Positions 29,099-63,879 of a stretch of 64,000 nucleotides of DNA are shown here, piece after piece; the first letter of the stretch is position 1; each line of letters starts with the position of its first letter. A program made the position numbers and the translations under genes. A model generated the notes under the pieces. The model ran no database searches. It was not told the DNA's origin and worked only from the letters and a program-made list of their open reading frames with translations. Source of the DNA: Candidatus Komeilibacteria bacterium (GTDB lineage: Bacteria; Patescibacteriota; Patescibacteriia; UBA1558); the NCBI GenBank assembly GCA_048538275.1, contig JBLYPW010000003.1, forward strand, positions 15,248 to 79,247. Direction: 5' to 3'.

Positions 29099-29099
29099 G

Positions 29100-29128: not shown

Positions 29129-29151
29129 TTAATAGAAAAATGATCTGATTT

Positions 29152-29928
29152 ATGCCAGAATATTTAGATAAAGACGTACAACAACAAAAAGAGGGCCAAC
29201 AACCCTCTAATCCTTATTTATATTTAGGTGTTTTAGTGGGCGCAATGGTAATTTTTGGTATGACTTTTTGGCAAGTACAGCATAATATAAAAGCTCCCTT
29301 TGCCGACGATAATTCTGATAATAATGATAATCAAGTAATAGCTAATGCCGATAATCTTGATATTGAAAAACTCAAAAAACAAGATACGGACGGTGATGGT
29401 TTATCAGATTATTTGGAGCAATATGTTTATGGCACCTCCTCTTATATCGCGGACACGGATTCGGATGACATAAGTGATTCTGACGAAGTATTACAAGGTA
29501 CGGATCCATTGTGTGGTCAGGATGGTGGCTGCGCTCAGCCTATTAATACGCCCAGCGCAATGACTGGTGATGATTCTTTGGATGCTTTAATCAATAATGA
29601 TCAAGTTAATAATGATACCGGCGCATCCTCAGCAGATGGCATGACGCGTCAGCAATTAACGGATATTTTAGTACAGATGGGTTTCAATGCCACGGACCTG
29701 GCCAATGTAAGTGATCAAGATTTAGCTTTATTATACGACGAGGCTTTGCGTATGGCGCAAAATAGTGGTGATACTATAAACCCAGTCAATGATACTGGCA
29801 ATATCACGGCGGAGGAAATTCGCCAAGCCTTATTAGACAGTGGTGTTAGCGCCAGTCAGCTGGAAGGTATCACCGATGAAGAATTGATACAACTTTATCA
29901 GCAAGCTATTAGTAGCCAAGCACAATAA
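29152..29928 (+). CDS. Membrane-anchored Asp-rich protein with dockerin/thrombospondin-type-3-like Ca-binding motifs and a duplicated C-terminal helical motif
   Basis: Has a TM helix (LYLGVLVGAMVIFGMTFW), the motifs DTDGDGLSDYLE and DTDSDDISDSDE, and two approximately 35-aa repeats (...LTDILVQMGFNATDLANVSDQDLALLYDEA / ...IRQALLDSGVSASQLEGITDEELIQLYQQA). Its stop overlaps the start of the giant gene (TAATG). Confidence 0.5.
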   Translation: MPEYLDKDVQQQKEGQQPSNPYLYLGVLVGAMVIFGMTFWQVQHNIKAPFADDNSDNNDNQVIANADNLDIEKLKKQDTDGDGLSDYLEQYVYGTSSYIADTDSDDISDSDEVLQGTDPLCGQDGGCAQPINTPSAMTGDDSLDALINNDQVNNDTGASSADGMTRQQLTDILVQMGFNATDLANVSDQDLALLYDEALRMAQNSGDTINPVNDTGNITAEEIRQALLDSGVSASQLEGITDEELIQLYQQAISSQAQ

Positions 29929-44700: not shown

Positions 44701-46875
44701 AATATAGCAAATTTGGACATGGCCGATGCCACAAATGTTCAAACAATGCGTGAAAATGGTTTGCGTTTATTTAACAAACATCGGGCGGGCGGAGAGATAA
44801 GGCAGTTGTACGAACATGAAACTAAACATGGTTGGTTGGATAAGGTTGATCCGGATAAATCTATGCGCCAGCAAGCTTGGGCCGATATGACAGAGACAGA
44901 TCGCCAGGCTGCCAAAGATTATATTATACGCACGAGAGGCGAGGGTGATTGGACTGATGAAGAAATCGCTGGTGAGTATTTGGTGGATGCTTTGCAAAAA
45001 CGGCAAAGCAAGGATTCGGCTGAACGACCACCAGAGTTACCACAAGCTATTAAGCGACGTTTCACGGAAGCAGAAGATTATCAGATAAGTGAAGAATCTG
45101 GCTCAGCAGTAGATCATGAGTCTATGATCAAGACTTTAGCCGGTAAATATGTTGCTCGTAAAAATATCAAACAGCAAGATTATGAACAATCAGCCAGAGA
45201 ACAAAATACCTCTTTCTTGAATGCGGCTGCCAGAGCCGAGCAAGCGAACCAGCAAGCCAAAGTTGAGTTTAAGACAGCGACTAGTAAAGCACGACAAGAC
45301 AGCATTGGCAGCGCGCCCCAATCTATTGGCGGTAGCCAAACATTTGTTAGTACTGCACAGCGAGCTGATTTGGAAAAACGTTTTGGCCGCACTCTTTCTA
45401 GTGAAGAAGTTAAAAAATTCTCCGATATGAAGCGTAAAGAATTGAACCAAACAATAGAGGGGGAAAAGGCCAAGCAATTACGACAACAAGAGTCTGAGCG
45501 CGCGGCCGAGCTTAGTAAACAATATTATAGCGAACAAGAACGTAAACAGGATTATCTACGCAACAAAGCCAAGGAAGTTAATAAATATAGAGACGAGCAA
45601 AAGTATTATAATAATAATGCGGCAGCTCGTCAGGTGATAGCTGATAATGTAAAAAGTGGTGACTTGCCTATTGGTCAGTTAATGAAAATGAGTTCTACGG
45701 AAAGACAAGAACAACTTACCAATCTTTTACAACAAGCTGTCAAAGAGGGCGGGCTTGATGTGCAAGCTGAGTCATTACCCGCTATTGTTAACAATATAGA
45801 GGCGCAGCTGGATACAGAGGATATTAAAGTAGGTAACACATATGATCAAGGAGTAGCTTATCAAGCTTTACAGAGTCAGGCTAAGACGGATAAGAAGCTA
45901 GCAAATGATGCTGGTAAAGAAGCTGATAAATCTGTTAAATTTTGGGACAAAGAGATTACCAAGATTGATAGATCTGCTGGTCAGATAAAGACACGGGCAG
46001 AAAAAAGCGCGGCAGCTGCCAAGGCAACGACGACTGGCGGAAGTGATGCAATATCATCAATGCGCCAGGAATCAGCTAAACAACAGTCTGGCAAAAGACC
46101 AGTAGCGCCCAGCACAAGCAGTCGTTCTGATAATATGCCCGCTACTGGATCAGATGGAGTTGAACGAATGGAGCAGCGGTCAGAGCAGCGGTCAGAGCAG
46201 CGGTCAGAGCAGCGGTCAGAGCAGCGGTCAGAGCATGAGCGTAAGACCGACACGAGGACGCAATCCAATCAGACCGGGTCGGCTGAAAAGAAGGCTACGG
46301 ATCGTGTGATTCGTAGTGAAAAGAATACTATCACTTCGTCAGAAGCTGGCGCAAAGCCTGCCAGTCCGACAGCTGCACCGGCTGCCAAACCGCTTGGCAA
46401 AGCGACAGAGGCACCTTCTCAGCCAGCAGGCAATATAACTAGTACGGTTGAGCAGAGTGATAAAGTAGTTGGATTGTTAAATGATATTAGAGGTTTATTG
46501 AACGGACGTACTGGTCCTATAGCAGCCAGCAATACGTCTGTTATGGGACAGGCTTTGATGTCGCCGCAGCAATTTAAGTTATTAAAAAAACAATTTCAGT
46601 CTTTGGCCGCCAGTATAGCTGCCAATAAATCAAGTCAGAAAGTACTGGGTCAGGAAACAATGGATAAGTTAAATCACGTGAATAGCGCCTTACAGTCCAC
46701 GCAAGTAGATGATGATCATGATGTTGATATTGATTTGACAATGCAGGCAATGGATATAAATCCGTCCGACCTGGCCGCGATTTTAAAGAAAGTGGAGGAG
46801 CAACAAAAGAAAGATGCGGAAGATGATCAGGATGATGATATCCAGCCGCCCGCTAATTTACCAACAGCCACTTAG
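41740..46875 (+). CDS. Giant (1711 aa) polytopic membrane protein with about 1350-aa charged, low-complexity C-terminal region; VirB6/TrbL-like architecture is speculative
   Basis: The N-terminal roughly 340 aa have 6-8 TM helices. Downstream are a Gly-rich linker (GGAAGAAFGKGTGW) and a long E/K/Q/D-rich region with coiled-coil character that contains a (EQRS)5 repeat. Confidence 0.6.
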   Translation: MLKPFRPAKKKNGYRQLRAVQLPLVVLFLLVAGAALFWLVPQPVLAVASISDAIASALATILNWVLNFIGSLISSILIPVLSQLAVFNDFTGSGAVVQGWKLVRDICNMFFIVMMLVISVGTVLNISSYSYKNFLKKIIFMAILINFSKTIAGALIDVAQIVMLTFVSAFKDSLIVGFAQAFGLNKLTSLGTTVNDAGYVEKDNWSILMGVVFAIVIAAILAIVLIGMIIMLAARIVMLWVLVVLSPFAYLANILPGRLSSLGGQWWKQFTDQLIVGPVIAFFLWLALSVAGSPGGFIGENVDTSNQPTSLIDSSLANASFLMNYVMGILMLIVGMKMAKSMGGAAGAAFGKGTGWAQKYGWQGVKGSFKGVGKSVSWARDASKAFGRKGGSKEYLDELDQKRDAYAARGGVMGTLNSLRLARKIDKYKGREKSRKEAAGIVLKKFGLDGEAAQKTLVTASQIREDKKKNNIKRVVVDEVSKEFAGDDKLAQVKTDIKTKKAKTLLSGDKESAMMNYYADKEINVTEEDKQAYREKNPSAISPDYDLTDDQLREVREQKTKTAWQKLSKKEQGEWQDRFLQDINNKPFLNEQPVTEEDIEQFKQEEINQRTEAKLKDFTYRPRGMSMTAPANIMRYAVDWAKGKQEDRLNMEKLGQVLPANPDSFRAYNILDPLNAVKPAAAEAIMKQMDANAIYKQYKHLDDKVNDAETKEKRQKANKARTAWLMGAQFLKGKLSQVDEFLGRLPDGVSVVQPDEKVEALSSVKIEKSKRDFRVDNTDIEKMENTKRAAMEHMISLGPEETVNSIKGESGWQIDTTNSDLDADQVVLKNGDQSQTMTTDQFVRSNGKLMSERFYDSASAKMGSDNFVEKDKFDDYTRIRQSSQYGVTLRAGNDKAAVDFDRLQEVVGDKLDINDIALQGENVNGDEAVIIANGMRQMIEEQKQALADSEDEEQTRQILFDYFGKDTSASGEKLAKIKNETLINADANIANLDMADATNVQTMRENGLRLFNKHRAGGEIRQLYEHETKHGWLDKVDPDKSMRQQAWADMTETDRQAAKDYIIRTRGEGDWTDEEIAGEYLVDALQKRQSKDSAERPPELPQAIKRRFTEAEDYQISEESGSAVDHESMIKTLAGKYVARKNIKQQDYEQSAREQNTSFLNAAARAEQANQQAKVEFKTATSKARQDSIGSAPQSIGGSQTFVSTAQRADLEKRFGRTLSSEEVKKFSDMKRKELNQTIEGEKAKQLRQQESERAAELSKQYYSEQERKQDYLRNKAKEVNKYRDEQKYYNNNAAARQVIADNVKSGDLPIGQLMKMSSTERQEQLTNLLQQAVKEGGLDVQAESLPAIVNNIEAQLDTEDIKVGNTYDQGVAYQALQSQAKTDKKLANDAGKEADKSVKFWDKEITKIDRSAGQIKTRAEKSAAAAKATTTGGSDAISSMRQESAKQQSGKRPVAPSTSSRSDNMPATGSDGVERMEQRSEQRSEQRSEQRSEQRSEHERKTDTRTQSNQTGSAEKKATDRVIRSEKNTITSSEAGAKPASPTAAPAAKPLGKATEAPSQPAGNITSTVEQSDKVVGLLNDIRGLLNGRTGPIAASNTSVMGQALMSPQQFKLLKKQFQSLAASIAANKSSQKVLGQETMDKLNHVNSALQSTQVDDDHDVDIDLTMQAMDINPSDLAAILKKVEEQQKKDAEDDQDDDIQPPANLPTAT
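46171..46230 (+). repeat. Five perfect tandem copies of GAGCAGCGGTCA (12 nt) inside the 41740..46875 CDS
   Basis: They encode EQRSEQRSEQRSEQRSEQRS, and a degenerate sixth unit (GAGCATGAGCGT) follows. Confidence 0.8.
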
Positions 46876-51739: not shown

Positions 51740-53260
51740 ATGAGACAAAGCAAATTTTTACTGTTGTTTTTTGCCTTTGCTCTGCTTTTATTTTTACCGC
51801 AAGGCAGCAATGCGGCGTGGTCAGATCCAACTTGTGCTCCCCCTGGTTGCAATCGGCCACAACCAATTACAGTGGAAGGGGGTACTATTCAGTCCGGTAG
51901 TTTAAATCTGTCTAATGGCGTTCCACTTCAAGCTGGCGACATAAGTGTAGATGATTCTGGTATTACCGTAGGAGCGAAATTGGTTCCCAATGGCGGCTTA
52001 TCTGGGTATGATGATAAGTATCTTGTTTGTAGCTGGGACAGCGGTGCAGAACAATTGGTATGCACGGAAGAATCCTTAGGAAAAACCGCTCACACTTTAG
52101 CAAATGATTTATTGGTTGCTACTAATAATATTTTACTGACCAATGATGGTATTTTAAATATGACGGGGGGTAATAATAGAATTTATATAGCAGAGGGTGG
52201 GGAAGGCGTTGGTGGTTATGGTTTGTATAGCCAAGCCCACAGTATTGCAAAGGAGGTAGAGTCTATAGAGTCTTACAATAGCGCTGTTCATGGCAAGTCT
52301 GCTGACACCACTACTGCGGCTAAGTTTGTGAGTTATGGTGTAATAGGACAGGCATTAGCCGGGTCTAATAGTATTGGTGTCTATGGCACGGCGCCGGCTG
52401 CTGGTTTCGGTGTTTACGGTTATAATAGTGGCGGCGCATCTGCTACCGGTTATGCTGGTTATTATTATGGCAATTTTAAAGTGAAATTACCCCGTTCTGG
52501 TGGCTTGGGCAATGCTTTTATAGTGCAAAGTGATTGGGGCAGCGGTGTTGTGCCGCAGGTGATTACCATAGAACCTTCCAGCACCAGTGGTACGGATAAT
52601 ATTTTCTTTGATGGTGATGTTTATATTGGTGGCGATACGCGAGGCACGCATCAAATTTGTTTGAATGATAGCGGTAATGGGCAAAATTGTGTTAGTAGTT
52701 GGGATGAAGTATCTGGCCAGGGTACGGGTAATGCTGTATTCAAAACCGTAGACGTGCCCACTGGTACTGATCCGGTCGCTGATAATGCGGCTGATATTTT
52801 AACAGTTAGTGGCGATACAAATATTTTAGTTTATGGCAATGCTTCTATAGATAGCATCGGCATTTCTTTAAATAGTAGTTTGAGCAATATAGTAGCGGTT
52901 AACGGTGAAATTGATGATTATCTTTATCTTAATGGCGATGATAAGTTTGGCGTCCAAGTTTATGACGCTTTGTTGGTTGATGGTAATGTGACAGTCAATG
53001 GCTTGTCAGCTAATTGTGATAAGGTGACTACTGATGGAAATAAAATTTTAACTTGTGGCACAGATGCAGTAGATGATGCGGATAGCAGTTCAACTAATGA
53101 GATTCAGGGCTTGGGGGATGTTACTAAAATAGATAGCATGACTAAAGACGACATTACTACCGGCTCTATTACTATTAATTCTGCTACGGGACAACTATGC
53201 ATTGGTACTACGTGTATGACGGAGTCTGATTTGATAGATCTTCTTAAGTTACTTAAATAA
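51740..53260 (+). CDS. Secreted Gly/Tyr-rich beta-rich protein, hypothetical (possibly pilus- or surface-associated)
   Basis: Has a signal peptide (LLLFLPQGSNA/AW), GVYG/GYNSGG/GYAGYYYGN Gly-Tyr repeats and a C-terminal Cys pair. It is the first gene of the plus-strand block that leads into the pil operon. Confidence 0.5.
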   Translation: MRQSKFLLLFFAFALLLFLPQGSNAAWSDPTCAPPGCNRPQPITVEGGTIQSGSLNLSNGVPLQAGDISVDDSGITVGAKLVPNGGLSGYDDKYLVCSWDSGAEQLVCTEESLGKTAHTLANDLLVATNNILLTNDGILNMTGGNNRIYIAEGGEGVGGYGLYSQAHSIAKEVESIESYNSAVHGKSADTTTAAKFVSYGVIGQALAGSNSIGVYGTAPAAGFGVYGYNSGGASATGYAGYYYGNFKVKLPRSGGLGNAFIVQSDWGSGVVPQVITIEPSSTSGTDNIFFDGDVYIGGDTRGTHQICLNDSGNGQNCVSSWDEVSGQGTGNAVFKTVDVPTGTDPVADNAADILTVSGDTNILVYGNASIDSIGISLNSSLSNIVAVNGEIDDYLYLNGDDKFGVQVYDALLVDGNVTVNGLSANCDKVTTDGNKILTCGTDAVDDADSSSTNEIQGLGDVTKIDSMTKDDITTGSITINSATGQLCIGTTCMTESDLIDLLKLLK

Positions 53261-53276
53261 TGTTTTGTTTTTTTAG

Positions 53277-54743
53277 TTGATGAAAATTATCACTCACATT
53301 TTTCACTATTTATTAATTTTGGTTTTGGGTTTGGCAGCGATTGTTTGGTGGTTGATTGCCAGCCAGCCCAGTATTCAGGCTGCCTTGGATAATGGCGAGA
53401 TTACGGGTTGGGGATGGACTGATACAGTGGGTTGGATATCTTTGAATTGTGAAAATGTTTATGCCGGTGAAAATCAAGGCCAATTAAGCAGTCATTGTGA
53501 TGACAGCAATTATGGCGTGATTATTGATCCAGATAGCGGTGCTATTTCTGGCCAAGCTTGGTCTTCCAATATAGGTTGGATTGATTTTAATCCAACGGTC
53601 GGTGAGTCTAGTATTGGCTCTCTACCTACCATAACCGGCGGCGATGATTTTGCTTATCCCGTAGCCATGGATTCGGATACTAAGGAATTGTCAGGTTGGG
53701 CGGTGGCTACTTTTTCTGATTTTGATCCCAATAATAATGCCTGGATACGATTTAGAGCGGGTAATACTTGTGATACTAGTGTGACGCCGGCAGAGGATAC
53801 TTATTGTGTGCGGCAGAATGACGCCGGTTATCTCGTTGGCTGGGCGTGGAGTGGTGGTGACAATGGTTTGGGTTGGATTCGTTTTGAGCAGACTTTTTCC
53901 GGTGGCCCTTATGTGAAAACAGAATATAGCGACGTATATAGCGGCGGCGATATCAGAGGCTCTCGTGCGCCAGAAGGCGAGTATAATGCTACTTATTGTA
54001 TTATTTCTCAGAGTTCTGCCAGCAATATCACCTTATCCAGTAGCAAAGCTTGTTTGGTAGGCAATATTGATTTAGATTTTCCCAGCACTACCAATACCTA
54101 TAGCACGTCTATAGTAGAGATTGATTTAGATGATTTGTCGTCTCAAGCCACTAACAATGACACTTATTTTGATATTACCGAGGGTACGAGTTATGACATT
54201 AGTCAAAATTTATTAAATAATGGAGCTTTGAATGGAGCGGTTTATTATTTTACCAGTAGCGATGATAGCGTCAGTCAGTGGCGTTTATCAGAGGCGCGAG
54301 CTTTTAGTGATGCGGTGGGCCCAAATATTAGTGGCGAGGGAACTATAGTAATAGATGGCGATTTGTATATTGATCAAGCTTTGACTTATAACCCCGGTAC
54401 GCCTAGCGACCTCAGCCAGATTGCCTCAGTGGCTTGGATTGTTTTGGGCAATGTTTACATTGATCCTGCCGTTAGTGAAGTGGTTGGCACCTATGTGTTA
54501 TTGGGTGATGGCACTATTGCCAGCGGCAAATTATTTACTGGTGATGATTCTTCTTTAAACGACGGTGTCGGTAATCAGTTAGTATTTTCTGGCATGGTGA
54601 TAGCTAAAGAGATAGATTTTCAACGTAAATATTTTGTTGGTTTGAAAGCAGCGGAGGTATTTAGTTATGATGGTCGTACCTTGGTAAATACGCCCCCTGG
54701 TTTGCAAAACTTAGCTGGCTATCTGCCCAGTTGGAATAGGTAG
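53277..54743 (+). CDS. Membrane-anchored W-repeat extracellular protein, hypothetical (candidate pilus-associated adhesin)
   Basis: An N-terminal TM is followed by five GW-containing repeats of about 45 aa (GWGWTDTVGWISLNCEN, SSNIGWIDFNP, GWAVATFSDFDP, AWIRFRAGNTC, GWAWSGGDNGLGWIRFEQ). Confidence 0.5.
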   Translation: MMKIITHIFHYLLILVLGLAAIVWWLIASQPSIQAALDNGEITGWGWTDTVGWISLNCENVYAGENQGQLSSHCDDSNYGVIIDPDSGAISGQAWSSNIGWIDFNPTVGESSIGSLPTITGGDDFAYPVAMDSDTKELSGWAVATFSDFDPNNNAWIRFRAGNTCDTSVTPAEDTYCVRQNDAGYLVGWAWSGGDNGLGWIRFEQTFSGGPYVKTEYSDVYSGGDIRGSRAPEGEYNATYCIISQSSASNITLSSSKACLVGNIDLDFPSTTNTYSTSIVEIDLDDLSSQATNNDTYFDITEGTSYDISQNLLNNGALNGAVYYFTSSDDSVSQWRLSEARAFSDAVGPNISGEGTIVIDGDLYIDQALTYNPGTPSDLSQIASVAWIVLGNVYIDPAVSEVVGTYVLLGDGTIASGKLFTGDDSSLNDGVGNQLVFSGMVIAKEIDFQRKYFVGLKAAEVFSYDGRTLVNTPPGLQNLAGYLPSWNR

Positions 54744-54774: not shown

Positions 54775-55932
54775 TTGGTAATTTTCAAGATGGGACTTTT
54801 CTCCAAAACAAAAACTTATGTCGGCGTTGATGTTGGTACCGCTAGTATTAAATTGGTACAATTAACACACGATGGAAAAAATATTAAGCTGGATACTTTT
54901 GGTTATGTTGATGTAGCCAATGATATTATTCATGACAATACTCCGGAAAGTAAAACTAAGTTAATTAGCGTTCTGAAGTCTTTGCTTGCCAAAGCGGGTG
55001 TTACCAGTAAGCAAGCCATTGCTGCTTTACCTACTTTTGCTGTTTTTACTTCAATTATAAATTTACCGAAACTGCCTGGTAAAGAATTAACGTCGGCTAT
55101 TAATTGGGAGGCAAAGAAATATATTCCCTTGCCGTTGGAAGAAATGGTATTGGACTGGAAGATGGTAGATAATGATTTGGCGGAGGAAAAGAAAAAAGAT
55201 GATGGTTGGCAGCTGTTTAAAAAGAAGGAAGAAAATGCGGATAGTATCACGTCCGAACAACCAGAAGTCAAAGACAAGATTATTTCTAAACAGCAGGATT
55301 ATATAAAAGTTTTGATAACCGCCGCGCCCAAAAGTTTGGTGAATAAATATGTAGAAGTTTTTCAAGGCGCGGGATTGAATTTGGTATCTTTGGAAACCGA
55401 GGCCTTTGCTTTGAGCAGGTCTTTATTGCCGCAAGATGGCCAATTGGCTATGATCGTGGATATTGGTTCTATTACCACGGATATTTGCGTGATCGCCAAC
55501 CGCATTCCCGTATTAAATCGTAGTATAGATGTAGGCGGCTTGACTATCACCAAAGCGATTGCCGCTAGCTTAAATGTCAGCCAAGAAAGAGCAGAGCAGT
55601 TTAAGCGGGACTTTGGTTTGGTTTTGGGCGAAGCACAACGTGGTATTCCCAAAACAATTGAAGCTTCACTGGGCCCGATTATCAATGAAATAAAATATGT
55701 TTTTGATATGTATCGTAGCCAATCGGCGCGCGGTATAGAGAAAATTTTATTAGCTGGCGGTTCTTCAGAATTGCCTAATTTGACTGATTATTTTGGTAAT
55801 TTATTCAAAGTGCCTATTTATATTGGCAATCCTTGGGTAGATTTACAATATGCTGATGAGCTGCAACCCATGCTTGATCAGATCGGTACCCGCATGGCAG
55901 TGGCCATTGGCTTGGCACGGCGTGATCTGTAA
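54775..55932 (+). CDS. pilM: Type IV pilus assembly protein PilM (actin-like ATPase fold)
   Basis: YVGVDVGTASIKLVQL is the N-terminal phosphate-1 motif. The protein is 385 aa and lies upstream of pilN/pilO. Confidence 0.75.
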   Translation: MVIFKMGLFSKTKTYVGVDVGTASIKLVQLTHDGKNIKLDTFGYVDVANDIIHDNTPESKTKLISVLKSLLAKAGVTSKQAIAALPTFAVFTSIINLPKLPGKELTSAINWEAKKYIPLPLEEMVLDWKMVDNDLAEEKKKDDGWQLFKKKEENADSITSEQPEVKDKIISKQQDYIKVLITAAPKSLVNKYVEVFQGAGLNLVSLETEAFALSRSLLPQDGQLAMIVDIGSITTDICVIANRIPVLNRSIDVGGLTITKAIAASLNVSQERAEQFKRDFGLVLGEAQRGIPKTIEASLGPIINEIKYVFDMYRSQSARGIEKILLAGGSSELPNLTDYFGNLFKVPIYIGNPWVDLQYADELQPMLDQIGTRMAVAIGLARRDL

Positions 55933-55938
55933 AATATT

Positions 55939-56790
55939 ATGGTAGATTTTTTAGATAAAAAAGATAATAAAAAAATAGAAAAATCTGACACTAAAGGATG
56001 GTCAGCTCGTTTATTGCAGCCATTGCATAAAAAAGATCAGGCTGGTAAAGATTTGACTGTTGATTTATTAGCTGCCGGACAAGGTCAGGCCGGCGCGGAT
56101 AAAATAAAAAAACCAGCACCCAAGCAAAATAAAAATGCCGCTGATGATAAGGGGGCAAAGTTAAAAGTAAAGGCCGCCCCAACAAGTCGGCCAAAAGATG
56201 ATGACGATGAAGAGGGTGGTTTTGAGGTCAATTTGTTGCCCGCCAGTCTTGGTTTTCAGTCCAATAAAAAAATATTTTTACAATTGGCCGGATGGGCTTT
56301 GTTGGCTATTTTAGTGGTGGCTGGGATATCTATAATTATTTCTATTTATGGGCAGTCTATCAGTGATGAGGCCATCAGTTTGCAAGAGGAAATAGATTAT
56401 CTAGATGCGCAAAGTCGCCAATACAATCAAGCCTTGGCTTTAGGCACTACTTTGGAGACCAAAGCAACAGCCGTTGACACATTATTACGGTCTCACATTT
56501 ATTGGACAAATTTTTTTACTGCTTTAGAAAAAGTAACCTTACCCAAAGTTTATTATCAAGGTTTTACTGCTAGTATTATTAGCTTGGATATAAATTTAAG
56601 TTCTTTTGCTCCTACTTTTACCGATGTAGCCAGACAATTAGTAGCTTATGAAAAATTTCCCCAAGTATTCAGTAATTATAGTGTCAGTGAAGCTTCTTTG
56701 AGTAAAGGAGTGGGTGTAAATTATACAGCTCGCGTGACATTGGATCCCACCTTATTTTACGATGCAGCTTTTATTATCACACCAAAATAA
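55939..56790 (+). CDS. pilN: PilN-like type IV pilus assembly protein with basic N-terminal extension
   Basis: EVNLLPASLGF and a single TM (LAGWALLAILVVAGISIIISI) are followed by a coiled-coil periplasmic part. The gene is positioned after pilM. Confidence 0.55.
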   Translation: MVDFLDKKDNKKIEKSDTKGWSARLLQPLHKKDQAGKDLTVDLLAAGQGQAGADKIKKPAPKQNKNAADDKGAKLKVKAAPTSRPKDDDDEEGGFEVNLLPASLGFQSNKKIFLQLAGWALLAILVVAGISIIISIYGQSISDEAISLQEEIDYLDAQSRQYNQALALGTTLETKATAVDTLLRSHIYWTNFFTALEKVTLPKVYYQGFTASIISLDINLSSFAPTFTDVARQLVAYEKFPQVFSNYSVSEASLSKGVGVNYTARVTLDPTLFYDAAFIITPK

Positions 56791-57494
56791 TGGTAGAACA
56801 AAAAGAAAAAAATGAGGTCAGTGTTTTGAATATAACTCTCAATAAGTATAAGAGTATTTTTGCTATCGTGACAGTGGTAATTATTGTTTTGGTTGGAGCT
56901 GTCTTGGTGTGGTGGCCGGCTTGGCAAACTATCAATCATGATAATCAAAACCGAGTGCCCCAGTTACGCGCGGATCGCGACAGTAAAGCCAATTATTTAC
57001 AACAATTGAAAAGACTTGACCAACGTTTACAAACTTTGCAACGATCAGGAGATGATTCTATTGCTGTATTAGACGAGATATTGCCTAGCCAGGCTTCCGC
57101 GCAGTTACTTTTTGTAGCCATAGAAAATATGGTACAGCAAGCCGGCTTTGCTATGCAGAAAATCACCGTCACTGAATCCAAAACAGATATTAATGATTTG
57201 GCAGAATTTCAGACGCAAGATTTTATGAGTTTACCCGCCTTACCAGATCAGGTGAAAGCTTTGGATGTCAACATTATAGTGGAAGGCGGTGGTTATAATC
57301 AGTTTAAAAATTTATTGGCCAGAATTGAGCGCGATAGTCGTTTATTTAATATCATTACAGTAAATTTTGCGGCTTTGTCTGATCGGGGATATGTTAATGA
57401 GCAAGGTGATGAGGTGGCTAGTAAACAATATTCTTTTAATTTGCGGACTTATTATTTGAGTGATAACAATGCTGAAGCAAAAGGGACCAAGTAA
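56790..57494 (+). CDS. pilO: PilO-like type IV pilus assembly protein
   Basis: A single TM near the N-terminus is followed by a coiled coil (YLQQLKRLDQRLQTLQ). The start overlaps the pilN stop (ATAATG). Confidence 0.5.
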   Translation: MVEQKEKNEVSVLNITLNKYKSIFAIVTVVIIVLVGAVLVWWPAWQTINHDNQNRVPQLRADRDSKANYLQQLKRLDQRLQTLQRSGDDSIAVLDEILPSQASAQLLFVAIENMVQQAGFAMQKITVTESKTDINDLAEFQTQDFMSLPALPDQVKALDVNIIVEGGGYNQFKNLLARIERDSRLFNIITVNFAALSDRGYVNEQGDEVASKQYSFNLRTYYLSDNNAEAKGTK

Positions 57495-57804
57495 AAAGAA
57501 AAATATTATATTGATATCTATTTTAGGCATCTCTGTTTTGGGTATTGTTTTTATGCTCTGGCAGCAAAGCGCCCCGGTAAGCGTTCCAGAAGTGGAAGAG
57601 GGCGGATCCTTGTCTACTGATTTTATTCTCAATCGTAAGATAAAAAAAGTAAAATCTATTTTACAGTCTTTGGATTTTCCTTTTATAGAATATGATGTTT
57701 ATAAAAGACTGAGCAAACCAGTGCCAGTACCCGAGGTGACAGACGATGAGGTGGGCAATGATTTACCTTTTCAGATACAAGAATTTTTTCCTCAATCTTT
57801 TTAA
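57460..57804 (+). CDS. Small membrane-anchored protein in the pil operon (PilP-like position), hypothetical
   Basis: 114 aa with an N-terminal TM and a P/V-rich linker. It overlaps the pilO 3' end. Confidence 0.35.
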   Translation: MITMLKQKGPSKKKNIILISILGISVLGIVFMLWQQSAPVSVPEVEEGGSLSTDFILNRKIKKVKSILQSLDFPFIEYDVYKRLSKPVPVPEVTDDEVGNDLPFQIQEFFPQSF

Positions 57805-57813: not shown

Positions 57814-59589
57814 ATGGTAAATAAAGTAACAAAAGATAGTCCTTTATTGGATAAGCTTTTGGAGAAAGGCTTGATAAGTAGCCAGCAGTACAGTGAAGTG
57901 ATGGCTAAAAAAGAAGCCGGCAATGCTTCGGTAGAAAGAATTTTACAAGAAGCTCAGCTGGTGAGCGAGGAAGAGCTGACTCGTGCCAAGGGAGAGGTTT
58001 TGAATGTGCCTTATGTTGATTTGCATGAGGCGGTTATCAATCAGCAGGATTTACGTTTTTTGCCTCAAAATTTGGCGCAAAATTATCAGATGATAGTTTT
58101 TGCTATTAAAGATAATCAATTGCAAGTTGGCTTGGTAGATCCGACCAATTTTCAAGCCCTAGAAGTTGTAGAATATTTAGCACGCAAAAATAATTATAAA
58201 GTAAAATATTATATTATTTCTCGCAGTGGGTTTGTTTGGGCTAGCAAAAAGTATGAATCATTGAAACAGGAAGTAGGTGAAGTACTGGGTGAAGCGGAAG
58301 AAAAATTTTCTCAGCGTCGCTCGGTAGCCAAAGGCATTAAATTGGATAAGGTAGAAGGTGATTTGGAAGATATTATTAAGTCTGCACCGGTATCAAAGAT
58401 GGTTTCTGTTATTATCCGTCACGCCGTGGAAGGCAAGGCTTCTGATATTCATATTGAGCCGGTTGGTGACGGTTCTCGCGTGCGTTATCGTATTGATGGC
58501 ATTTTGCATACTTCTTTAACCTTGCCCGAATATGTTCATTCCGCGATCGTAACGCGTATCAAAGTATTGTCAAATTTAAAAATTGATGAAACTCGTATAC
58601 CTCAGGATGGTCGTATCCGGCTTGATATCAATGATCGTGATGTGGATTTTCGTGTTTCCACTATTCCGCTGGTCGGTAAAGAAAAGGTAGTGATGCGTAT
58701 TTTAGAATCTCCGGACAAAGCTCCCACCTTGGAAGATCTTGGATTTATTGGCCATTATGCCACCATTCTCAAGCGGGAATTAAAAAAACCAAACGGTCTG
58801 TTTTTGGTGACTGGACCAACTGGGTCTGGTAAATCAACCACCTTATTTGCCACTTTAGATATTTTAAATCGTGAAGAGGTCAATATATCTACGCTGGAGG
58901 ATCCGGTTGAGTATTTTGTGCCGGGCGTCAATCAATCACAGGTGCATCCTGAAATCGGTTATACTTTTGCTTCTGGTTTGCGTTCTTTATTGCGTCAGGA
59001 TCCGGATATTGTCATGGTGGGTGAGATTCGTGATGGTGAAACGGCAGAGCTAGCCATACACGCTGCTTTGACCGGTCACTTTGTATTATCCACTTTGCAT
59101 ACCAATGACGCTCCCGGAGCTATTCCTCGTTTTCTTGATATGGGAGCAGAATCATTTTTATTGGGTTCAACTTTAAATGTTATTATAGCGCAACGTTTGA
59201 TTCGTAAAATTTGTGATAAATGTAAAGAGGAAATTCAAATTCCACCCGAGGCTATGGCTGAGGTGAAGGCGGAGGTTAGTAAGATCAAACCGGAGTATCG
59301 TTATGATGGTATTGATTTGGATAATATGAAATTTTATAAAGGCAAGGGTTGCCATTATTGTGGTGATACTGGCTATAAAGGACGTTTTGCCATTGCTGAG
59401 TTGATTGCCATAAATCAGACGATGCGCGAAATTATTACGGAGGAGTTTGATCAGGAAGCTTTAGAAAAAGAATTAGAGCGTCAAGGATTTTTCCCTATGA
59501 AAACGGATGGTTTTATGAAAGCATTGCTGGGCATTACTACCGTGGAAGAGATATTGCGCGTTACTCGTCAAGAAGAAGCAAAAGATTAA
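57814..59589 (+). CDS. pilB: Type IV pilus assembly ATPase PilB (paralog 2, inside the pil operon)
   Basis: Has an N-terminal GSPII_E_N domain, Walker A GPTGSGKSTT, the EDPVEY motif, Walker B DIVMVGEIRD, the His box GHFVLSTLHT, and the zinc motif CDKCKEE...CHYC. Confidence 0.9.
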   Translation: MVNKVTKDSPLLDKLLEKGLISSQQYSEVMAKKEAGNASVERILQEAQLVSEEELTRAKGEVLNVPYVDLHEAVINQQDLRFLPQNLAQNYQMIVFAIKDNQLQVGLVDPTNFQALEVVEYLARKNNYKVKYYIISRSGFVWASKKYESLKQEVGEVLGEAEEKFSQRRSVAKGIKLDKVEGDLEDIIKSAPVSKMVSVIIRHAVEGKASDIHIEPVGDGSRVRYRIDGILHTSLTLPEYVHSAIVTRIKVLSNLKIDETRIPQDGRIRLDINDRDVDFRVSTIPLVGKEKVVMRILESPDKAPTLEDLGFIGHYATILKRELKKPNGLFLVTGPTGSGKSTTLFATLDILNREEVNISTLEDPVEYFVPGVNQSQVHPEIGYTFASGLRSLLRQDPDIVMVGEIRDGETAELAIHAALTGHFVLSTLHTNDAPGAIPRFLDMGAESFLLGSTLNVIIAQRLIRKICDKCKEEIQIPPEAMAEVKAEVSKIKPEYRYDGIDLDNMKFYKGKGCHYCGDTGYKGRFAIAELIAINQTMREIITEEFDQEALEKELERQGFFPMKTDGFMKALLGITTVEEILRVTRQEEAKD

Positions 59590-59601: not shown

Positions 59602-59979
59602 ATGAACAATAAAGAAACAATTTTATTAATAGAAGACGATAGCTTTTTATTGCAAATGTATGCCACCAAATTAGAGCTGGCAGGCTTTGCTGTGGAAGTG
59701 GCTAGCGATGGCGCTAAGGGATTACAAATGGCCGGCAAGATTTTACCCGATTTAATACTATTAGACTTGATCATGCCCAAGATGGATGGTTTTGTGGTAT
59801 TGGAGGCTTTGAAGAAGAATGATAACACTAAAGATATACCCGTGATTATCTTGACCAATTTAGGACAACGGGAGGATGTACAAAAGTGTTTGGCTATGGG
59901 AGCGGTGGATTATATGATTAAGGCGCATTATGTTCCGGCTGAGGTGGTGAGCAAGATTAGAGCGGTATTGGGCCAATAA
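59602..59979 (+). CDS. Stand-alone CheY-like response regulator receiver (PilH-like)
   Basis: LLIEDDSFLL carries the acidic pocket, DLILLDLIMPKMDG carries the phospho-acceptor Asp, and ILTNLGQ and K in MIKAHY are present. There is no output domain. Confidence 0.8.
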   Translation: MNNKETILLIEDDSFLLQMYATKLELAGFAVEVASDGAKGLQMAGKILPDLILLDLIMPKMDGFVVLEALKKNDNTKDIPVIILTNLGQREDVQKCLAMGAVDYMIKAHYVPAEVVSKIRAVLGQ

Positions 59980-60009
59980 TAAATTATGAATGATACGGAT
60001 GATAACTCT

Positions 60010-60045
60010 GCCCCGCCCCGTCAGCTTGAGCTGACGGGGCGGGGC
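60010..60045 (+). terminator. 16-bp perfect hairpin GCCCCGCCCCGTCAGC-TTGA-GCTGACGGGGCGGGGC after the receiver gene
   Basis: GC-rich stem in an AT-rich context. Confidence 0.55.
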
Positions 60046-60092
60046 AAGCTAATAAGTTTTAGATTTTAATTATTTAATTTTTTTATAGGCAC

Positions 60093-61169
60093 ATGGCAAC
60101 TACAGACACTTTAATTATCAATAGAATATTGGGAGCGGCCGCTGAACGACGGGCATCAGATTTACACTTGTCCGCTGGTAATTATCCAGTCATGCGGATC
60201 AATGACGAGCTGGTTCCTTTGGAGGGAGAGGAGGTTATTACCCCTGATTTTGTCCAACAGTTGGTAGAGTTTTTTATCCCTGAAGATAAGCGAGAGGAAT
60301 TTAATAAAAATAAAGAGATTTTATTGATTCATGAGTGGATGAACCAACTACGTTTGAAAGTAGCTATTTTTTATCAGAAAAATTTACCGGTGGTAGCAAT
60401 ACATATTATTCCGGAAGTGGTTCCTGAGTTGCGTAGCTTGGGCCTACCCCAGGGAGTAGACAATTTGATAAATAGCAAAAAAGGTTTGCTGTTGATTGGC
60501 GGCACTTTTGGTTCTGGCCGTTCTACCACGGCCGCAGTTTTATTAAACACTATTAATGCCCAGCGTAAGGAAAGAATTTTGACCATAGAGGAGCCGATAG
60601 AATTTTTATTGGCCAATAATCAAAGCATGATTGCACAACAGGAGGTGGGTAAGGATATTGTTTCTCGTCGCGATGGTTTGGCACAGGCTATGAATCAAGA
60701 CATTGACGTATTATTTGTCAGTGAAGTGTCAGACTGGGAAGAATGGGAGCTAGTATTGAAGCATGCTGAGGCTGGCCGGTTGGTATTGGTGGTGATGACA
60801 GCAGAAAGTTCTACCTTGGCTTTAGAGCGGATTATCAATGCTTATCCAGAAGATAAACAGAATTGGGCTAGAGAATTATTAGCGAATCACTTGGAGGCAG
60901 TTTTAATACAGCGTTTATTGCCAAGGGTAGGTGGCGGCTTGGCTATGGCTAGCGAGTTGTTATTTAATAATCAAGCGGTAGCCGGCTCTATCAAAGAAAA
61001 CAAACTTTATCAGATTTTTAGTATTTTACAGAGTAATCGTGATATGGGCATGCTAGCTCTTGATCAGTCACTGCTAGAATTGGTGCGTACCGGCGAGGTT
61101 GCGAAAGAAGATGCTTTGCCCGAAGTTATTGATAAAGTTAATTTTAATAATTCATTAAAGAAATTTTAG
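60093..61169 (+). CDS. pilT: PilT-like protein (twitching-motility ATPase family) with degenerate Walker A and His box
   Basis: It aligns to PilT throughout (INRILGAAAERRASDLHL..., IEEPIEF, DVLFVSEVSD). However, Walker A reads GGTFGSGRSTT (Lys to Arg) and the His-box region reads GRLVLVVMTAES in place of GHLV..TLHT. Confidence 0.65.
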   Translation: MATTDTLIINRILGAAAERRASDLHLSAGNYPVMRINDELVPLEGEEVITPDFVQQLVEFFIPEDKREEFNKNKEILLIHEWMNQLRLKVAIFYQKNLPVVAIHIIPEVVPELRSLGLPQGVDNLINSKKGLLLIGGTFGSGRSTTAAVLLNTINAQRKERILTIEEPIEFLLANNQSMIAQQEVGKDIVSRRDGLAQAMNQDIDVLFVSEVSDWEEWELVLKHAEAGRLVLVVMTAESSTLALERIINAYPEDKQNWARELLANHLEAVLIQRLLPRVGGGLAMASELLFNNQAVAGSIKENKLYQIFSILQSNRDMGMLALDQSLLELVRTGEVAKEDALPEVIDKVNFNNSLKKF

Positions 61170-61225: not shown

Positions 61226-62434
61226 ATGGCTATTTTTAAATATCGCGCTCATCGGGGTCAGGATATTACCACTGGCATGGTAGAGGCTCCTAATCTGGAG
61301 GCAGCCTCGGAAATTTTAGGCGATCGCGGTTTAAACATTATAAATATCAGTGAGGCAGAAGAGGGTAAAAAGGGCCTGTCTTTAAATATTGCTATTTTAC
61401 AAAGAGTCAAGCCTAAAGATTTGGTGATTTTTTCACGTCAGCTTTCCGTGATGATATCAGCGACTTTGCCGATTGTGCAGGCTTTGCGTATTTTAGTCAA
61501 ACAAACTACCAATCCATTTTTCAAAGGTATTATTTCTGAGCTGGCTGATGAAGTGGAGGGTGGACAAAAATTTTCTGTGGCCTTAGGTAAGCACCGTAAT
61601 ATTTTTTCCAACTTTTATGTCAGTATGGTCAAGAGCGGTGAGACCTCGGGCAAGCTGGATGATGTCTTAGAATATTTAGCGGATCAATTGGAAAAAGATT
61701 ATGATTTACGGAGCAAGATAAAAGGTGCCATGATTTATCCGGCTTTTATTATCTCCGGTTTGGTAGTGGTAGGTATAGTAATGATGATTTTTGTCATTCC
61801 GAAATTAACGGAAATGTTGACGGCTTCCGGTCAAGAATTACCCATTGCCACTCGTATGTTAATAGCTACCAGCACTTTTATGCGTGATTATTGGTGGTTG
61901 TTGATTGTATTGGTATTGGGCATAGTCTTTGGTTTGCGTTATGTGATTAAGACTAAAAAAGGAAAAAAAGCCTTTGATTTGTTATTGATTAAGTTGCCGG
62001 TATTTGGCAAATTATTTCAGCGTATTTATTTAGTACGTTTAACGCGCTCTTTATCCACCCTGATCGTGGGTGGCGTGCCGTTGACAGCGGGTTTGAAGAT
62101 TGTTAATGAGGTAGTGGGCAATACCGCCTATCAAGAAATTATTGAGGAAACTATCAAGGTAGTGGAAGATGGTGATTCGGTAGCCAGTATTATGCTTAAT
62201 TCTAATATTATTCCCAGCTTGGTGTCGCAAATGATGAGCGTGGGAGAAAAAACCGGTCGTTTGGATGAGGTGCTGCGCCGGGTATCTGATTTTTATTCTC
62301 GTGAAATTGAAAATATTGTGTCTAATTTGACCAGCTTAATAGAGCCTTTTATTATGGTTGTGATTGGCGTGGCAGTGGGTGGCATGGTGGCAGCCATTAT
62401 TTTACCAATGTATAACTTAGCGAATCAGTTTTAG
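61226..62434 (+). CDS. pilC: Type IV pilus inner-membrane platform protein PilC (GspF family)
   Basis: Two GspF repeats and three TM segments. The N-terminus is MAIFKYRAHRGQDITTGMVEAPNLEAASEILGDRGL. Confidence 0.85.
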   Translation: MAIFKYRAHRGQDITTGMVEAPNLEAASEILGDRGLNIINISEAEEGKKGLSLNIAILQRVKPKDLVIFSRQLSVMISATLPIVQALRILVKQTTNPFFKGIISELADEVEGGQKFSVALGKHRNIFSNFYVSMVKSGETSGKLDDVLEYLADQLEKDYDLRSKIKGAMIYPAFIISGLVVVGIVMMIFVIPKLTEMLTASGQELPIATRMLIATSTFMRDYWWLLIVLVLGIVFGLRYVIKTKKGKKAFDLLLIKLPVFGKLFQRIYLVRLTRSLSTLIVGGVPLTAGLKIVNEVVGNTAYQEIIEETIKVVEDGDSVASIMLNSNIIPSLVSQMMSVGEKTGRLDEVLRRVSDFYSREIENIVSNLTSLIEPFIMVVIGVAVGGMVAAIILPMYNLANQF

Positions 62435-62557: not shown

Positions 62558-63031
62558 ATGAAAAATAACAAAGGTTTTACCTTGATTGAGTTATTGGTAG
62601 TGATTGCCATCATTGGTTTACTTTCCACTTTAGCGGTGGTTTCTTTGAATTCGGCTAGATCAAAAGCTAGGGATGCTCGCCGTACTTCTGATATCAGACA
62701 ATTACAGACCGCTTTAGAGATGTATTTTAATGATAAGGGAGCTTATCCAGCAACGCCAAGTAACTCAACATACTTGGGTGAGGATACCACTGGCACTGAT
62801 GATCCACGAGTATTAACCAGCGCTGGTTTTGAGGAAACAGGAACTGCTGGTGAAACTGTATTTATGAATCAAGTACCTTCTGATCCCCAGCCAGATACTT
62901 ATCATTACGATTACGCTGCAACTGGCACGGGCAATACGGGTTATACAATAAGTTTTACACTTGAAAATGATAATTCCAGTTGGGGTGGAGATGTGTGTGT
63001 AGCGTCTCCCGGGCAAATTTCCTGTAATTAA
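62558..63031 (+). CDS. pilA: Type IV major pilin (class III signal peptide, C-terminal disulfide)
   Basis: The prepilin leader and cleavage site are MKNNKG/FTLIELLVVIAIIGLL, with Glu at +5. C-terminal Cys lie at ...DVCVASPGQISCN. A strong terminator follows. Confidence 0.85.
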   Translation: MKNNKGFTLIELLVVIAIIGLLSTLAVVSLNSARSKARDARRTSDIRQLQTALEMYFNDKGAYPATPSNSTYLGEDTTGTDDPRVLTSAGFEETGTAGETVFMNQVPSDPQPDTYHYDYAATGTGNTGYTISFTLENDNSSWGGDVCVASPGQISCN

Positions 63032-63078: not shown

Positions 63079-63879
63079 TTGGTTAAAAAATGCTATAATA
63101 TAGCCATGATTTACTTTATTTTAGTGATTTTAGGCTTATTGTTAGGTAGTTTTTATAATGCTTTAATTTATCGTTTATATAAAGGTGAAAGTATTGTTCG
63201 GGGGCGTTCTCATTGTCCGCATTGTGGTCATACTTTGAGCTGGCGGGACTTATTTCCTATTTTCAGTTGGTTGTGGTTAGGCGGGCATTGTCGCTATTGT
63301 CAGGCAAAGATTGGCTGGCAGTATCCAATGATTGAATTGGTGAGTGCGGGTTTATTAGTAATGGGTTATGCGGTTTTGGGACCAGCTCAGCCATTATTAA
63401 ATTTTACTACTTGGTTGCCATTTATTTATTATGCGATTGCCAGCGCCGGTTTATTAATCATCTTTATTTTTGACGGCCGTTATACTTTAATACCGGATAA
63501 AGTGAGCTTGCCACTGATGGTGGTGGCTTTATTGTTTACTTGGTTGACCGGGCAGGATTTAGTACAACATATTTTAGCTGGGGTAGTTGGTTTGGCGTGG
63601 TTTGGTTGGCAATATGTGATTTCTCGTGGGCGTTGGATTGGCGGGGGAGATTTACGGATGGGTTTGTTAATGGGTTTGTTGTTAGGTTGGCCGGGCATAG
63701 TCATAGCTTTATTTATATCTTATATTTTAGGCGCGGTGGTGGCTATTGGTTTATTACTTAGTCATCGTCGCCAAATTGGCAGTCAGCTGGCTTTTGGCAC
63801 TTTTTTGAGTGTAGCTGCTTTACTCACTTGGTTGTGGGGAGATCAATTATTACATTGGTATCTGAATTTATTTATTTGA
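63079..63879 (+). CDS. pilD: Prepilin peptidase PilD (A24 family) with N-terminal zinc-binding CxxC pairs
   Basis: CPHCGHTL...CRYCQAKI are the two CxxC pairs. It has multiple TM helices and the conserved Asp motif region (GGGDLRM). Confidence 0.85.
   Translation: MVKKCYNIAMIYFILVILGLLLGSFYNALIYRLYKGESIVRGRSHCPHCGHTLSWRDLFPIFSWLWLGGHCRYCQAKIGWQYPMIELVSAGLLVMGYAVLGPAQPLLNFTTWLPFIYYAIASAGLLIIFIFDGRYTLIPDKVSLPLMVVALLFTWLTGQDLVQHILAGVVGLAWFGWQYVISRGRWIGGGDLRMGLLMGLLLGWPGIVIALFISYILGAVVAIGLLLSHRRQIGSQLAFGTFLSVAALLTWLWGDQLLHWYLNLFI

Follow-up and report, generated by a model that had tools for sequence, protein, structure and literature searches.

A PilT-fold protein with a degenerate active site, probably a non-motor subunit, in the type IV pilus operon of a Komeilibacteria bacterium and its relatives

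We analysed a stretch of 64,000 nucleotides from a Candidatus Komeilibacteria bacterium (assembly GCA_048538275.1, contig JBLYPW010000003.1, positions 15,248 to 79,247 of the forward strand), which as a whole is called the window here and on which all coordinates below are given. The subject is a gene, denoted pilT*, that is encoded among the genes of the type IV pilus machinery, between pilB and a stand-alone receiver gene (REC) on one side and pilC on the other. In its product, PilT*, the PilT fold is predicted to be intact and the active site is degenerate, with the Walker A Lys, both histidines of the His box, both Arg fingers and the Arg of the GEMRD motif all replaced. Homologues that are degenerate in the same manner form a single clade in bacteria of the candidate phyla radiation (CPR). 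Judged from these substitutions and from their conservation, PilT* is probably a hydrolysis-impaired, non-motor subunit of the pilus machine.

Canonical residues are numbered here on PilT4 of G. metallireducens (PilT_Gm), relative to which PilT* has an offset of +6 that was checked on the alignment to 6ojx and on 144 canonical domains. McCallum et al. reported complete conservation, among PilT-like ATPases, of the Walker motifs, the catalytic Glu, two Arg fingers and an Asp-box Glu (PMC5424180). In PilT* the Walker A signature GxxGxGK[ST] with its invariant Lys is not present, the residues reading G137-T-F-G-S-G-R143-S, where K137 has become R143 and the interface residue T133 has become F139. 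The string GGTFGSGRSTT, from which the first-pass annotation had deduced the loss of the Lys, occupies residues 136-146 and aligns to TGPTGSGKSTT without a gap. The His box is likewise lost, with T221, H223 and H230 replaced by A227, R229 and T236, and the earlier reading of GRLVLVVMTA (residues 228-237) against GHLVFGTLHT, with both His replaced, is correct. The residues T133, T221 and H230 constitute the closed inter-subunit interface (PMC5424180; 10.1101/672212). Neither of the two arginine fingers of the N-terminal domain is present; their positions R83 and R98 probably correspond to the fingers R271 and R286 of PilB_Gm, with which they share the identical 15-residue spacing. Moreover, the GEMRD Arg R207 is S213, R195 is N201 and R278 is L283, and the segment AVAGSIKE matches the motif AIRNLIRE at A, I and E, with conservative changes of I to V and of R to K. 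When nine further catalytic or interface residues were scored, none was found to be kept, the catalytic Glu aside. The losses of both Arg fingers, R207, R195, R278, T133 and T221 go beyond those noticed in the first-pass annotation.

What PilT* retains is also specific. The Asp box with its Mg-coordinating Glu is present, the Walker B residues D197 and D199 are kept as D203 and D205, and the catalytic E205 is kept as E211, with the neighbouring G204 changed to S210. All of the acidic residues that had been described as retained (E166, E170, D203, D205 and E211) are thus in place, the first Asp of the Asp box being E167. The Mg-binding S144 and the P-loop glycines are retained, and the packing Arg R81 is retained as R87; the packing pair E164-R81 is a contact of both the O- and the C-interface (10.1101/672212). 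In the same window the two PilB paralogues, described earlier as canonical, do carry GPTGSGK[ST]TT and GEIRD.

In the alignment to the solved PilTs the Lys and both His residues are true replacements, which no indel has displaced. The codons of R143 (CGT, where Lys requires AAR), R229 (CGG) and T236 (ACA, where His requires CAY) lie at least two base changes away from the canonical ones. A sequencing or assembly error, or an indel misalignment, is ruled out by the gap-free motifs, these multi-base codons, the duplicate in the Logan assembly and dozens of homologues; nothing in support of such an error was found, and its probability is close to nil.

The N-terminus of PilT* agrees with those of its homologues. 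A protein identical to it is present at NCBI from a metagenome-assembled genome of Candidatus Komeilibacteria (MFW0838078.1), where it is annotated as 'type IV pilus twitching motility protein PilT', and a Logan assembly also carries the identical protein. The Pfam model T2SSE (PF00437) scores 72 bits against a cut-off of 24.9, and the best NCBIfam model is pilT_fam (TIGR01420), with 292 bits, under the curated cut-off of 319.1. A phmmer search of the PDB gives a full-length match to PilT of A. aeolicus (2ewv, E 3e-64) and full-length matches also to PilT of T. thermophilus, Geobacter and P. aeruginosa, the identity to the solved PilTs being 29-35% over the full length and the alignment gap-free across the motifs. 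The architecture, of about 350 residues, consists of an N-terminal PAS-like domain and a RecA-like C-terminal domain, without MshEN domain or zinc finger. An AlphaFold2 model built on 58 clade members has the two-domain PilT fold, with a predicted local distance difference test score (pLDDT) of 93.5 and a predicted template-modelling score (pTM) of 0.88. With this model the top Foldseek matches are all PilT or PilU, at template-modelling (TM) scores of 0.85-0.91, the best (0.91) being PilT4 with ATP (6ojx). By its model, PilT* is an intact PilT-fold protein, in line with the first-pass designation as a PilT homologue.

The degenerate active site is not peculiar to the window. Ten homologues, with 65-74% identity, bear the same substitutions, reading GG[TS]FGSGR[ST]TT and, further on, MT[AT]E[ST], and the next 30-40 matches (38-44% identity) read GPF/YGSGR[ST] and are without the GEMRD Arg and both His. 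In an exhaustive search, about 100 of the best 150 cluster representatives (clusters at 50% identity) are of the degenerate type. Since the pattern is present in more than 100 clusters and in ten close homologues, it cannot have arisen by chance or as an assembly artefact.

Residue frequencies were compared between 144 canonical PilT domains and 109 degenerate domains. In the canonical domains K137, H223, H230 and R207 are at 100%, R83, R98, R195, E205 and T221 at 99%, and the P-loop Thr at 86%. In the degenerate domains K137 is at 31%, R207 at about 0-3% and H223 and H230 at 0%, with R83 at 48%, R98 at 55%, R195 at 20%, E205 at 45% and T221 at 3%. The replacements are themselves biased: the Walker A Lys position holds R in 67% (K in 31%), the P-loop Thr position F in 55% and Y in 21%, and the first-His position R in 61% and K in 13%, the second His being never His. 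By contrast with these positions, G131, G136, E160, E164 and R81 remain at 97-100% (E160 and E164 at 97-99%). Among the 41 positions that are at 95% or more in canonical PilTs, 13 are still at 90% or more in the clade and 15 are essentially lost, the lost ones lying mostly in or beside the Walker A, Walker B and His-box motifs. Altogether 17 positions at 90% or more are common to the clade and canonical PilT, and F/Y139, R143, R229 and S210 are conserved specifically in the clade.

In a neighbour-joining (NJ) tree of 78 sequences (Kimura distances, 200 bootstraps), the degenerate proteins form a single clade with a support of 199/200, and they group with the canonical PilTs that other CPR bacteria encode in the operon (137/200). 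On the sequence evidence the degenerate clade is thus old and of single origin, in CPR bacteria of the Parcubacteria/ABY1 type including Komeilibacteria. An identity of PilT* as PilU was also considered and rejected: its catalytic motifs are degenerate, the 64-kb window has no other gene of the PilT family, and its clade is the group of the tree furthest from the PilU-like sequences (mean distance 1.61).

Several variants of the degenerate type were observed. In one subgroup (L017, L018 and L021, at about 10001-12140 of these loci) the Walker A Lys is kept (GSFGSGKTTT) and the His box is lost. Its gene is followed immediately by a pilM-like gene, pilB, REC and pilC being absent from the surroundings, and one of the three loci is on a 1.15-Mb contig. 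Another (L057, L059 and L064, about 10001-11077) reads GPRDSGRSTL, with the second Glu of the Asp box replaced (PIKA), and is placed between pilB and pilC without REC. There are also tandem double-PilT fusions of 700-1000 residues (P0121-P0125, P0128, P0133, P0148, P0162 and P0260), some of which are half degenerate and half canonical, the N-terminal half reading GNRGSGRS in P0148 and GANGSGRT, with the His box lost, in P0260. These fusions look as if a dead PilT and a live one had been joined covalently.

In the window there is a complete type IV pilus operon, which extends from two function-unassigned proteins to the prepilin peptidase gene pilD (Table 1). The second of the two proteins, of which homologues occupy the corresponding place in most of the related CPR pilus loci, is probably an undescribed component of the pilus machine. 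Synteny was analysed by a scan of one genome per GTDB species with an alignment of 13 sequences, together with look-ups of individual homologues. This gave about 30 loci with a degenerate PilT, and the order pilM-N-O-pilB-REC-pilT*-pilC is found in about 27 of 33, with REC directly upstream of pilT* and spacers that are mostly of 2-20 nt or overlapping. The records are titled Parcubacteria, Nomurabacteria, Buchananbacteria, Jacksonbacteria, Kerfeldbacteria and 'Patescibacteria group'. About a dozen third-party annotation (TPA) assemblies titled 'uncultured Gammaproteobacteria bacterium' also carry the CPR-type operon with a degenerate PilT (L007, L008, L009, L011, L015, L019, L025, L026, L028, L059 and L064), and these titles are probably wrong. 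In other CPR loci, titled Saccharibacteria, Doudnabacteria, Moranbacteria and others, the same slot is filled by a canonical PilT (GPTGHGKSTT and GHLVFATLHT), and by its position PilT* appears to be the orthologue of this operon PilT. Because the canonical-PilT loci share this slot and 8 of 13 of them also have the upstream REC, the pairing of REC with PilT is, as far as the sequences tell, ancestral and not specific to the degenerate form.

Table 1. Features of the window discussed in the text, with residues of PilT* numbered on its own sequence and canonical residues on PilT_Gm
Feature	Position	Strand	Description	Basis
pilT*	60093..61169	+	PilT-fold protein with degenerate active site, 358 aa, ATG start	ORF (open reading frame) translation
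Arg-finger positions of the N-terminal domain	60357..60404	+	R83 to K89 (60357-60359); R98 to H104 (60402-60404)	alignment
Walker A / P-loop, G137-T145	60501..60527	+	G-T-F-G-S-G-R-S-T (canonical G-P-T-G-S-G-K-S-T)	gap-free alignment
Asp box, T164-F171	60582..60605	+	TIEEPIEF; E160 kept as E166, Mg-coordinating E164 kept as E170, D161 to E167	
Walker B region, D203-D214	60699..60734	+	DIDVLFVSEVSD (canonical DPDVILVGEMRD)	alignment
His box, A225-A237	60765..60803	+	AEAGRLVLVVMTA (canonical AETGHLVFATLHT)	alignment
Equivalent of the AIRNLIRE motif, A295-E302	60975..60998	+	AVAGSIKE	alignment
Operon head	51740..54743	+	two conserved function-unassigned proteins (506 and 488 aa)	no Pfam match
pilM	54775-55932	+		Pfam
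pilN-like	55939-56790	+		conserved position, weak phmmer matches across loci
pilO-like	56790-57494	+		conserved position, weak phmmer matches across loci
Small ORF	57460-57804	+	114 aa	conserved position, weak phmmer matches across loci
pilB	57814..59589	+	canonical extension ATPase (MshEN and T2SSE)	domains, motifs
REC	59602..59979	+	stand-alone CheY-like receiver, 125 aa	Pfam Response_reg, E 8e-23, 81 bits
Hairpin	60009..60046	+	perfect, 17 bp, GC-rich, in the 113-nt REC-pilT* spacer	folding
pilC	61226..62434	+	platform protein (two T2SSF)	Pfam
Major pilin	62558-63031	+		domain search
pilD	63079-63879	+	prepilin peptidase	domain search
Second pilB	12373-14064	-	fully canonical, 563 aa	GPTGSGK[ST]TT and GEIRD
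tRNA-Glu	3831-3905	-		

The rate of evolution was compared through the pairwise protein identities within the sets of loci. Within the CPR loci with a degenerate PilT (171 pairs), the identity is 43% for PilT*, 53% for PilB and 51% for PilC, and only 1% of the pairs show a higher identity for PilT* than for PilB. Within the CPR loci with a canonical PilT, the identity is 55% for PilT versus 51% for PilB, and in Aquificota it is 75% versus 65%. As PilT* has a lower identity than PilB in the degenerate loci, the comparison implies that the constraint on PilT* is relaxed or redirected and far from absent. That PilT* evolves faster than PilB and PilC, and that its former catalytic positions are variable among the members, would also be expected if it were a functionless relic in decay after a canonical paralogue had taken over. 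This is very unlikely: more than 100 divergent clusters have intact full-length ORFs (355-360 residues), and their genomes, of about 1 Mb, readily lose genes. The shared and the clade-specific conserved positions given above, the confident model, the tight and often overlapping spacing to REC and pilC, and the retention of a clade of single ancient origin speak against decay as well.

We now consider what PilT* would do. Hydrolysis is predicted to be lost because the catalytic residues are lost, the Glu in more than half of the clade and H230 and R207 universally, and because of the behaviour of Walker A Lys-to-Arg changes: in RecA, the substitution K72R leaves ATP binding in place and nearly abolishes hydrolysis, as is known of RecA-type ATPases. 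On the other hand, since the P-loop glycines, S144 and E170, the positive charge at 143 and 229, and the E164-R81 pair are kept, the sequence suggests that nucleotide binding and hexamer packing persist. With the triad T133-T221-H230 changed to Phe/Tyr, Ser/Ala and Asn/Asp/Thr, respectively, the sensing of the nucleotide of the neighbouring subunit would be changed. The first-pass annotation had proposed a hydrolysis-impaired pseudo-ATPase with a regulatory or brake role; this inference is strengthened by the additional lost residues, by the old monophyletic clade, by the intact predicted fold and by the separate canonical PilT in relatives that is described below and could supply motor activity, and a brake is one of several non-motor roles that would fit.

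Another explanation is that PilT* is still a retraction motor, having a non-canonical active site with Arg in place of the Walker A Lys and Arg or Lys in place of the first His, so that retraction would be slow, of low force and economical, as befits DNA uptake or attachment to a host. PilT* fills the pilT slot, no canonical PilT is present in the syntenic slot in the window, the clade has selected replacements that conserve charge, with R or K at 143 in 98% and at 229 in 74%, and S144, E166, E170, D203, D205 and E211 are kept. With this explanation, however, it is difficult to reconcile that 55% of the clade is without the catalytic Glu, nearly all of it without the GEMRD Arg and all of it without H230, that PilT* itself is without both Arg fingers and R278, and that its evolution is accelerated relative to that of PilB. 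Walker A Lys-to-Arg mutants of related ATPases are hydrolysis-dead, which also counts against such a motor. Moreover, the PilT mutants E204A and H229A lose twitching (10.1101/672212). We thus regard a non-canonical motor as unlikely.

We propose a model in which PilT* works as a clutch or gate on the pilus platform, a more specific role to which we would give about an even chance. In the model, pilT* would derive from the PilT gene of an ancestral CPR operon pilMNO-pilB-REC-pilT-pilC. In one old CPR clade this copy would have shed the network for catalysis and for signalling between subunits, with a second, highly conserved canonical PilT encoded elsewhere in the genome. PilT* would keep its folding, the hexamer packing unit (the pair E170-R87) and probably the binding of Mg-nucleotide, through the glycines, S144, E166/E170 and the charge at 143 and 229. 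The hexamer would dock on the PilC/PilM platform, at the site used alternately by PilB and PilT, and there it would act as an ATP-free clutch or gate by displacing PilB, halting extension and holding the fibre or allowing its passive relaxation. Where powered retraction is needed, it would be supplied by the canonical PilT, and the co-operonic CheY-like receiver may select which hexamer engages. In cryo-electron tomography maps of M. xanthus, PilB and PilT reportedly share the same basal position. An ATPase-dead PilT still docks in vivo, where it supports PilU-dependent retraction (PMC12607626; 10.1101/2025.10.30.685630).

Several points weigh against the non-motor reading. R143 and R229 conserve the charge, and the catalytic Glu, the Mg ligands and the Walker B Asp residues are kept in PilT*, with which a slow or non-canonical hydrolysis would be possible. 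The formation of a PilT* hexamer and its binding to PilC are assumed from homology, and the NJ tree is open to long-branch effects. As REC also adjoins a canonical PilT (L034 and L039), its presence gives no specific support for a regulation of PilT*. The canonical PilT of the relatives lies in a cassette of ribonucleotide reductase and B12 type, and its link to pili is putative; and, since this cassette is absent from the syntenic slot in the window, the source genome may lack a canonical PilT.

The evidence on that canonical PilT is as follows. Two CPR loci in the scan held an isolated canonical PilT, and a search with one of them exposed a large and very conserved family of about 345 residues, called the orphan PilT here, with the motifs GPTGCGKST, GEMRD, GHLVLATLHT and AIANIIRE. 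Its members are named in Komeilibacteria (at least six entries), Kerfeldbacteria, Nomurabacteria, Falkowbacteria and Parcubacteria; the identity among those of Komeilibacteria is 83%, and the family forms its own NJ clade (196/200). In a Nomurabacteria contig (JACKFO010000002.1, 842,326 bp), a PilT* in the operon (P0011, at about 485 kb) and a canonical PilT (P0431, at about 644 kb) are present together. Another such pair, P0018 and P0361, derives from a single metagenomic sample, with identical contig statistics including the length of the longest contig. Thus a second, canonical pilT, the possible existence of which had been raised in the first-pass annotation, is present in related genomes, where the two co-occur on one contig, and none is found within the 64-kb window, in which the T2SSE-type ATPases are three only, the two PilB and PilT*.

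The orphan PilT always follows a cassette encoding a class II ribonucleotide reductase, a prenyltransferase/DUF4430 protein, BtuR, DUF4430 and DUF6580. It lies directly downstream of the series BtuR (CobA_CobO_BtuR), DUF4430 and DUF6580, at 12-140 nt from DUF6580 (L088 8215-11038, L094 8302-11035, L095 8389-11038, L097, and L098 8219-11038), and the position of the gene in what appears to be a cassette of B12 salvage and ribonucleotide reductase makes its service to the pilus questionable. In two relatives (L088 and L098) the cassette and the canonical PilT stand between a Lactamase_B_3 gene and a series of LysM-M23 (minus strand), leucyl-tRNA synthetase, major facilitator superfamily, RrnaAD, TSP3-repeat protein and a protein of about 2900 residues. 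The window keeps the same frame (18805-19428, and then 22806-38567), between the parts of which it has only an ORF of 240 residues (19430-20152) and gyrA (20142-22715); a tblastn search of the 64-kb window with eight cassette proteins gave no match.

The co-occurrence also bears on an adaptor role, in which PilT* would be a dead ring proximal to the machine that bridges an active orphan PilT to the platform. In both V. cholerae and P. aeruginosa, PilU is linked to the machine by PilT even when the latter is dead (PMC12607626; 10.1101/2025.10.30.685630), and PilT* is in the machine operon with its active paralogue encoded elsewhere, both being on one contig. The orphan is, however, of the PilT and not of the PilU type, with the motif AIANIIRE and a clade separate from the PilU-like sequences, and at 344-345 residues it is without the PilU-style C-terminal extension that mediates the PilT-PilU contact (10.1101/2025.10.30.685630); for these reasons it should dock unaided, and we consider the adaptor role improbable.

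As for the neighbouring REC, the first-pass annotation rightly placed a CheY-like receiver directly upstream of pilT*, and this arrangement is conserved. Its translation has D12, D13, D55, T85 and K107, all the residues of a CheY-like single-domain response regulator. No histidine kinase partner was found for it within the 64-kb window. The hairpin in the spacer between the two genes is strong (dG -47 kcal/mol and z = -6.8 for the region of 121 nt), in which respect the 'strong terminator' described earlier exists. As a canonical intrinsic terminator it was rejected: the first U run comes about 11 nt past the stem with no U-tract within 2 nt, the scan for consensus terminators did not call it, and it is not conserved, relatives at 69-71% identity being without it (L085, with a spacer of 9 nt, and L087, with one of 55 nt). 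Scanning of the spacer from the hairpin to the start codon of pilT* gave no promoter-like site, and a search for a second copy of the hairpin sequence gave only a chance-level match with three mismatches at 41666. By this comparison the hairpin is a species-level feature, which may terminate transcription in part or stabilise the RNA, and it is no evidence of a regulatory design that is conserved. The earlier suggestion that it regulates expression is not supported, the hairpin being species-specific; because REC and pilT* are 2-20 nt apart or overlapping in most relatives, the spacing points to their co-transcription there.

Some further features of the window are recorded here. The second pilB is beside a protein of 345 residues (14191-15228, minus strand) and ftsH, with no pilC or pilM nearby; the 345-residue ORF, considered as a hidden ATPase, has no PDB or Pfam match and looks like a multi-pass membrane protein. 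Two giant ORFs on the plus strand have no Pfam match (29928-38567, 2879 residues, and 41740-46875, 1711 residues), and between them is a paralogous pair of 416 residues each on the minus strand (38639-39889 and 40193-41443) with Sortilin/BNR-like repeats and, at the C-terminus, a Por_Secre_tail/CHU_C sorting domain of the type IX secretion system (T9SS) type, unexpected in CPR. At 4047-6042 (minus strand) a LexA-like S24 peptidase lies beside an ImpB/UmuC-type Y-family polymerase, resembling an SOS-type cassette.

The ATPase core of PilT-like proteins, comprising the catalytic Glu, the Walker A Lys, the His-box His and the Arg fingers, is regarded as invariant in all members, and an ancient and widespread clade at the heart of a pilus operon departs from this rule. 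The CPR genome papers treat the operon gene as an ordinary PilT (PMC5220378, PMC6744442, PMC11809585), and the inferences on motility and DNA uptake that are made from this annotation need to be revisited for the lineages of the Parcubacteria/ABY1 type. A literature search that covered few subscription journals came upon no account of a PilT that is degenerate or a pseudo-ATPase. If PilT* is a natural dead ring, as a clutch or an adaptor, it would offer a ready system in which the docking of PilT is separated from its motor function, which hitherto was possible with point mutants only, and it bears on the low-energy control of attachment and DNA uptake by ultrasmall episymbionts. A bolder version, which we hold to be rather doubtful, is that a large part of the CPR runs its pili with an obligately inactive PilT ring from the core operon as an ATP-free latch or clutch that would hold or release the fibre; if true, this would suit energy-poor, host-attached episymbionts. 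In genomes like the present one, with the canonical PilT cassette absent from its usual slot, PilT* may be the sole member of the PilT family, and pili would then be retracted there without any retraction ATPase activity.

Finally, we compare PilT* with known systems. With canonical PilT (2ewv, 6ojx and 3jvv of P. aeruginosa) it shares the two-domain fold, the length, the position between pilB and pilC, the P-loop glycines, the Asp-box Glu, the R81-type Arg, the QRLLP..GGG segment and the C-terminal helices, the differences being the replaced residues given above, the score of PilT* under the TIGR01420 cut-off, and the rate, in that canonical PilT evolves slower than PilB and PilT* faster. The canonical operon PilT of other CPR bacteria (for example that of type IV pilus locus one of Saccharibacteria TM7x, and those of L027, L034, L039, L040 and L046) has the same slot and often the same REC but keeps GPTGHGKSTT, GEMRD and GHLVFATLHT, which PilT* does not; the NJ tree places it with PilT* (137/200), so that PilT* probably descends from a protein of this type. 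The conserved Walker boxes of the PilT of TM7x have been reported (PMC11623550). The best precedent for a non-motor ring is the engineered ATPase-dead PilT of V. cholerae and P. aeruginosa, with point mutations in Walker A or B, which does not hydrolyse and yet engages the machine and bridges PilU; it is a laboratory single-site mutant that works with PilU, whereas PilT* is natural, ancient and multiply substituted, and its proposed partner is of the PilT type. The PilU and PilT paralogues (PilT2/PilU of Neisseria, the four PilTs of Geobacter and those of M. xanthus) are also additional PilT-family members that modulate retraction, but in all those described the Walker A Lys, the catalytic Glu and the Asp and His boxes are intact (e.g. 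PMC5065972). PilU usually lies beside pilT and has a C-terminal extension, and PilT* has neither. Another system of interest is ArlH/FlaH of the archaellum, a protein of the RecA superfamily that binds ATP, turns over little or none of it and modulates ArlI, the motor ATPase of this type-IV-filament machine; unlike PilT*, it belongs to a KaiC-like single-domain family and is not derived from a motor ATPase.

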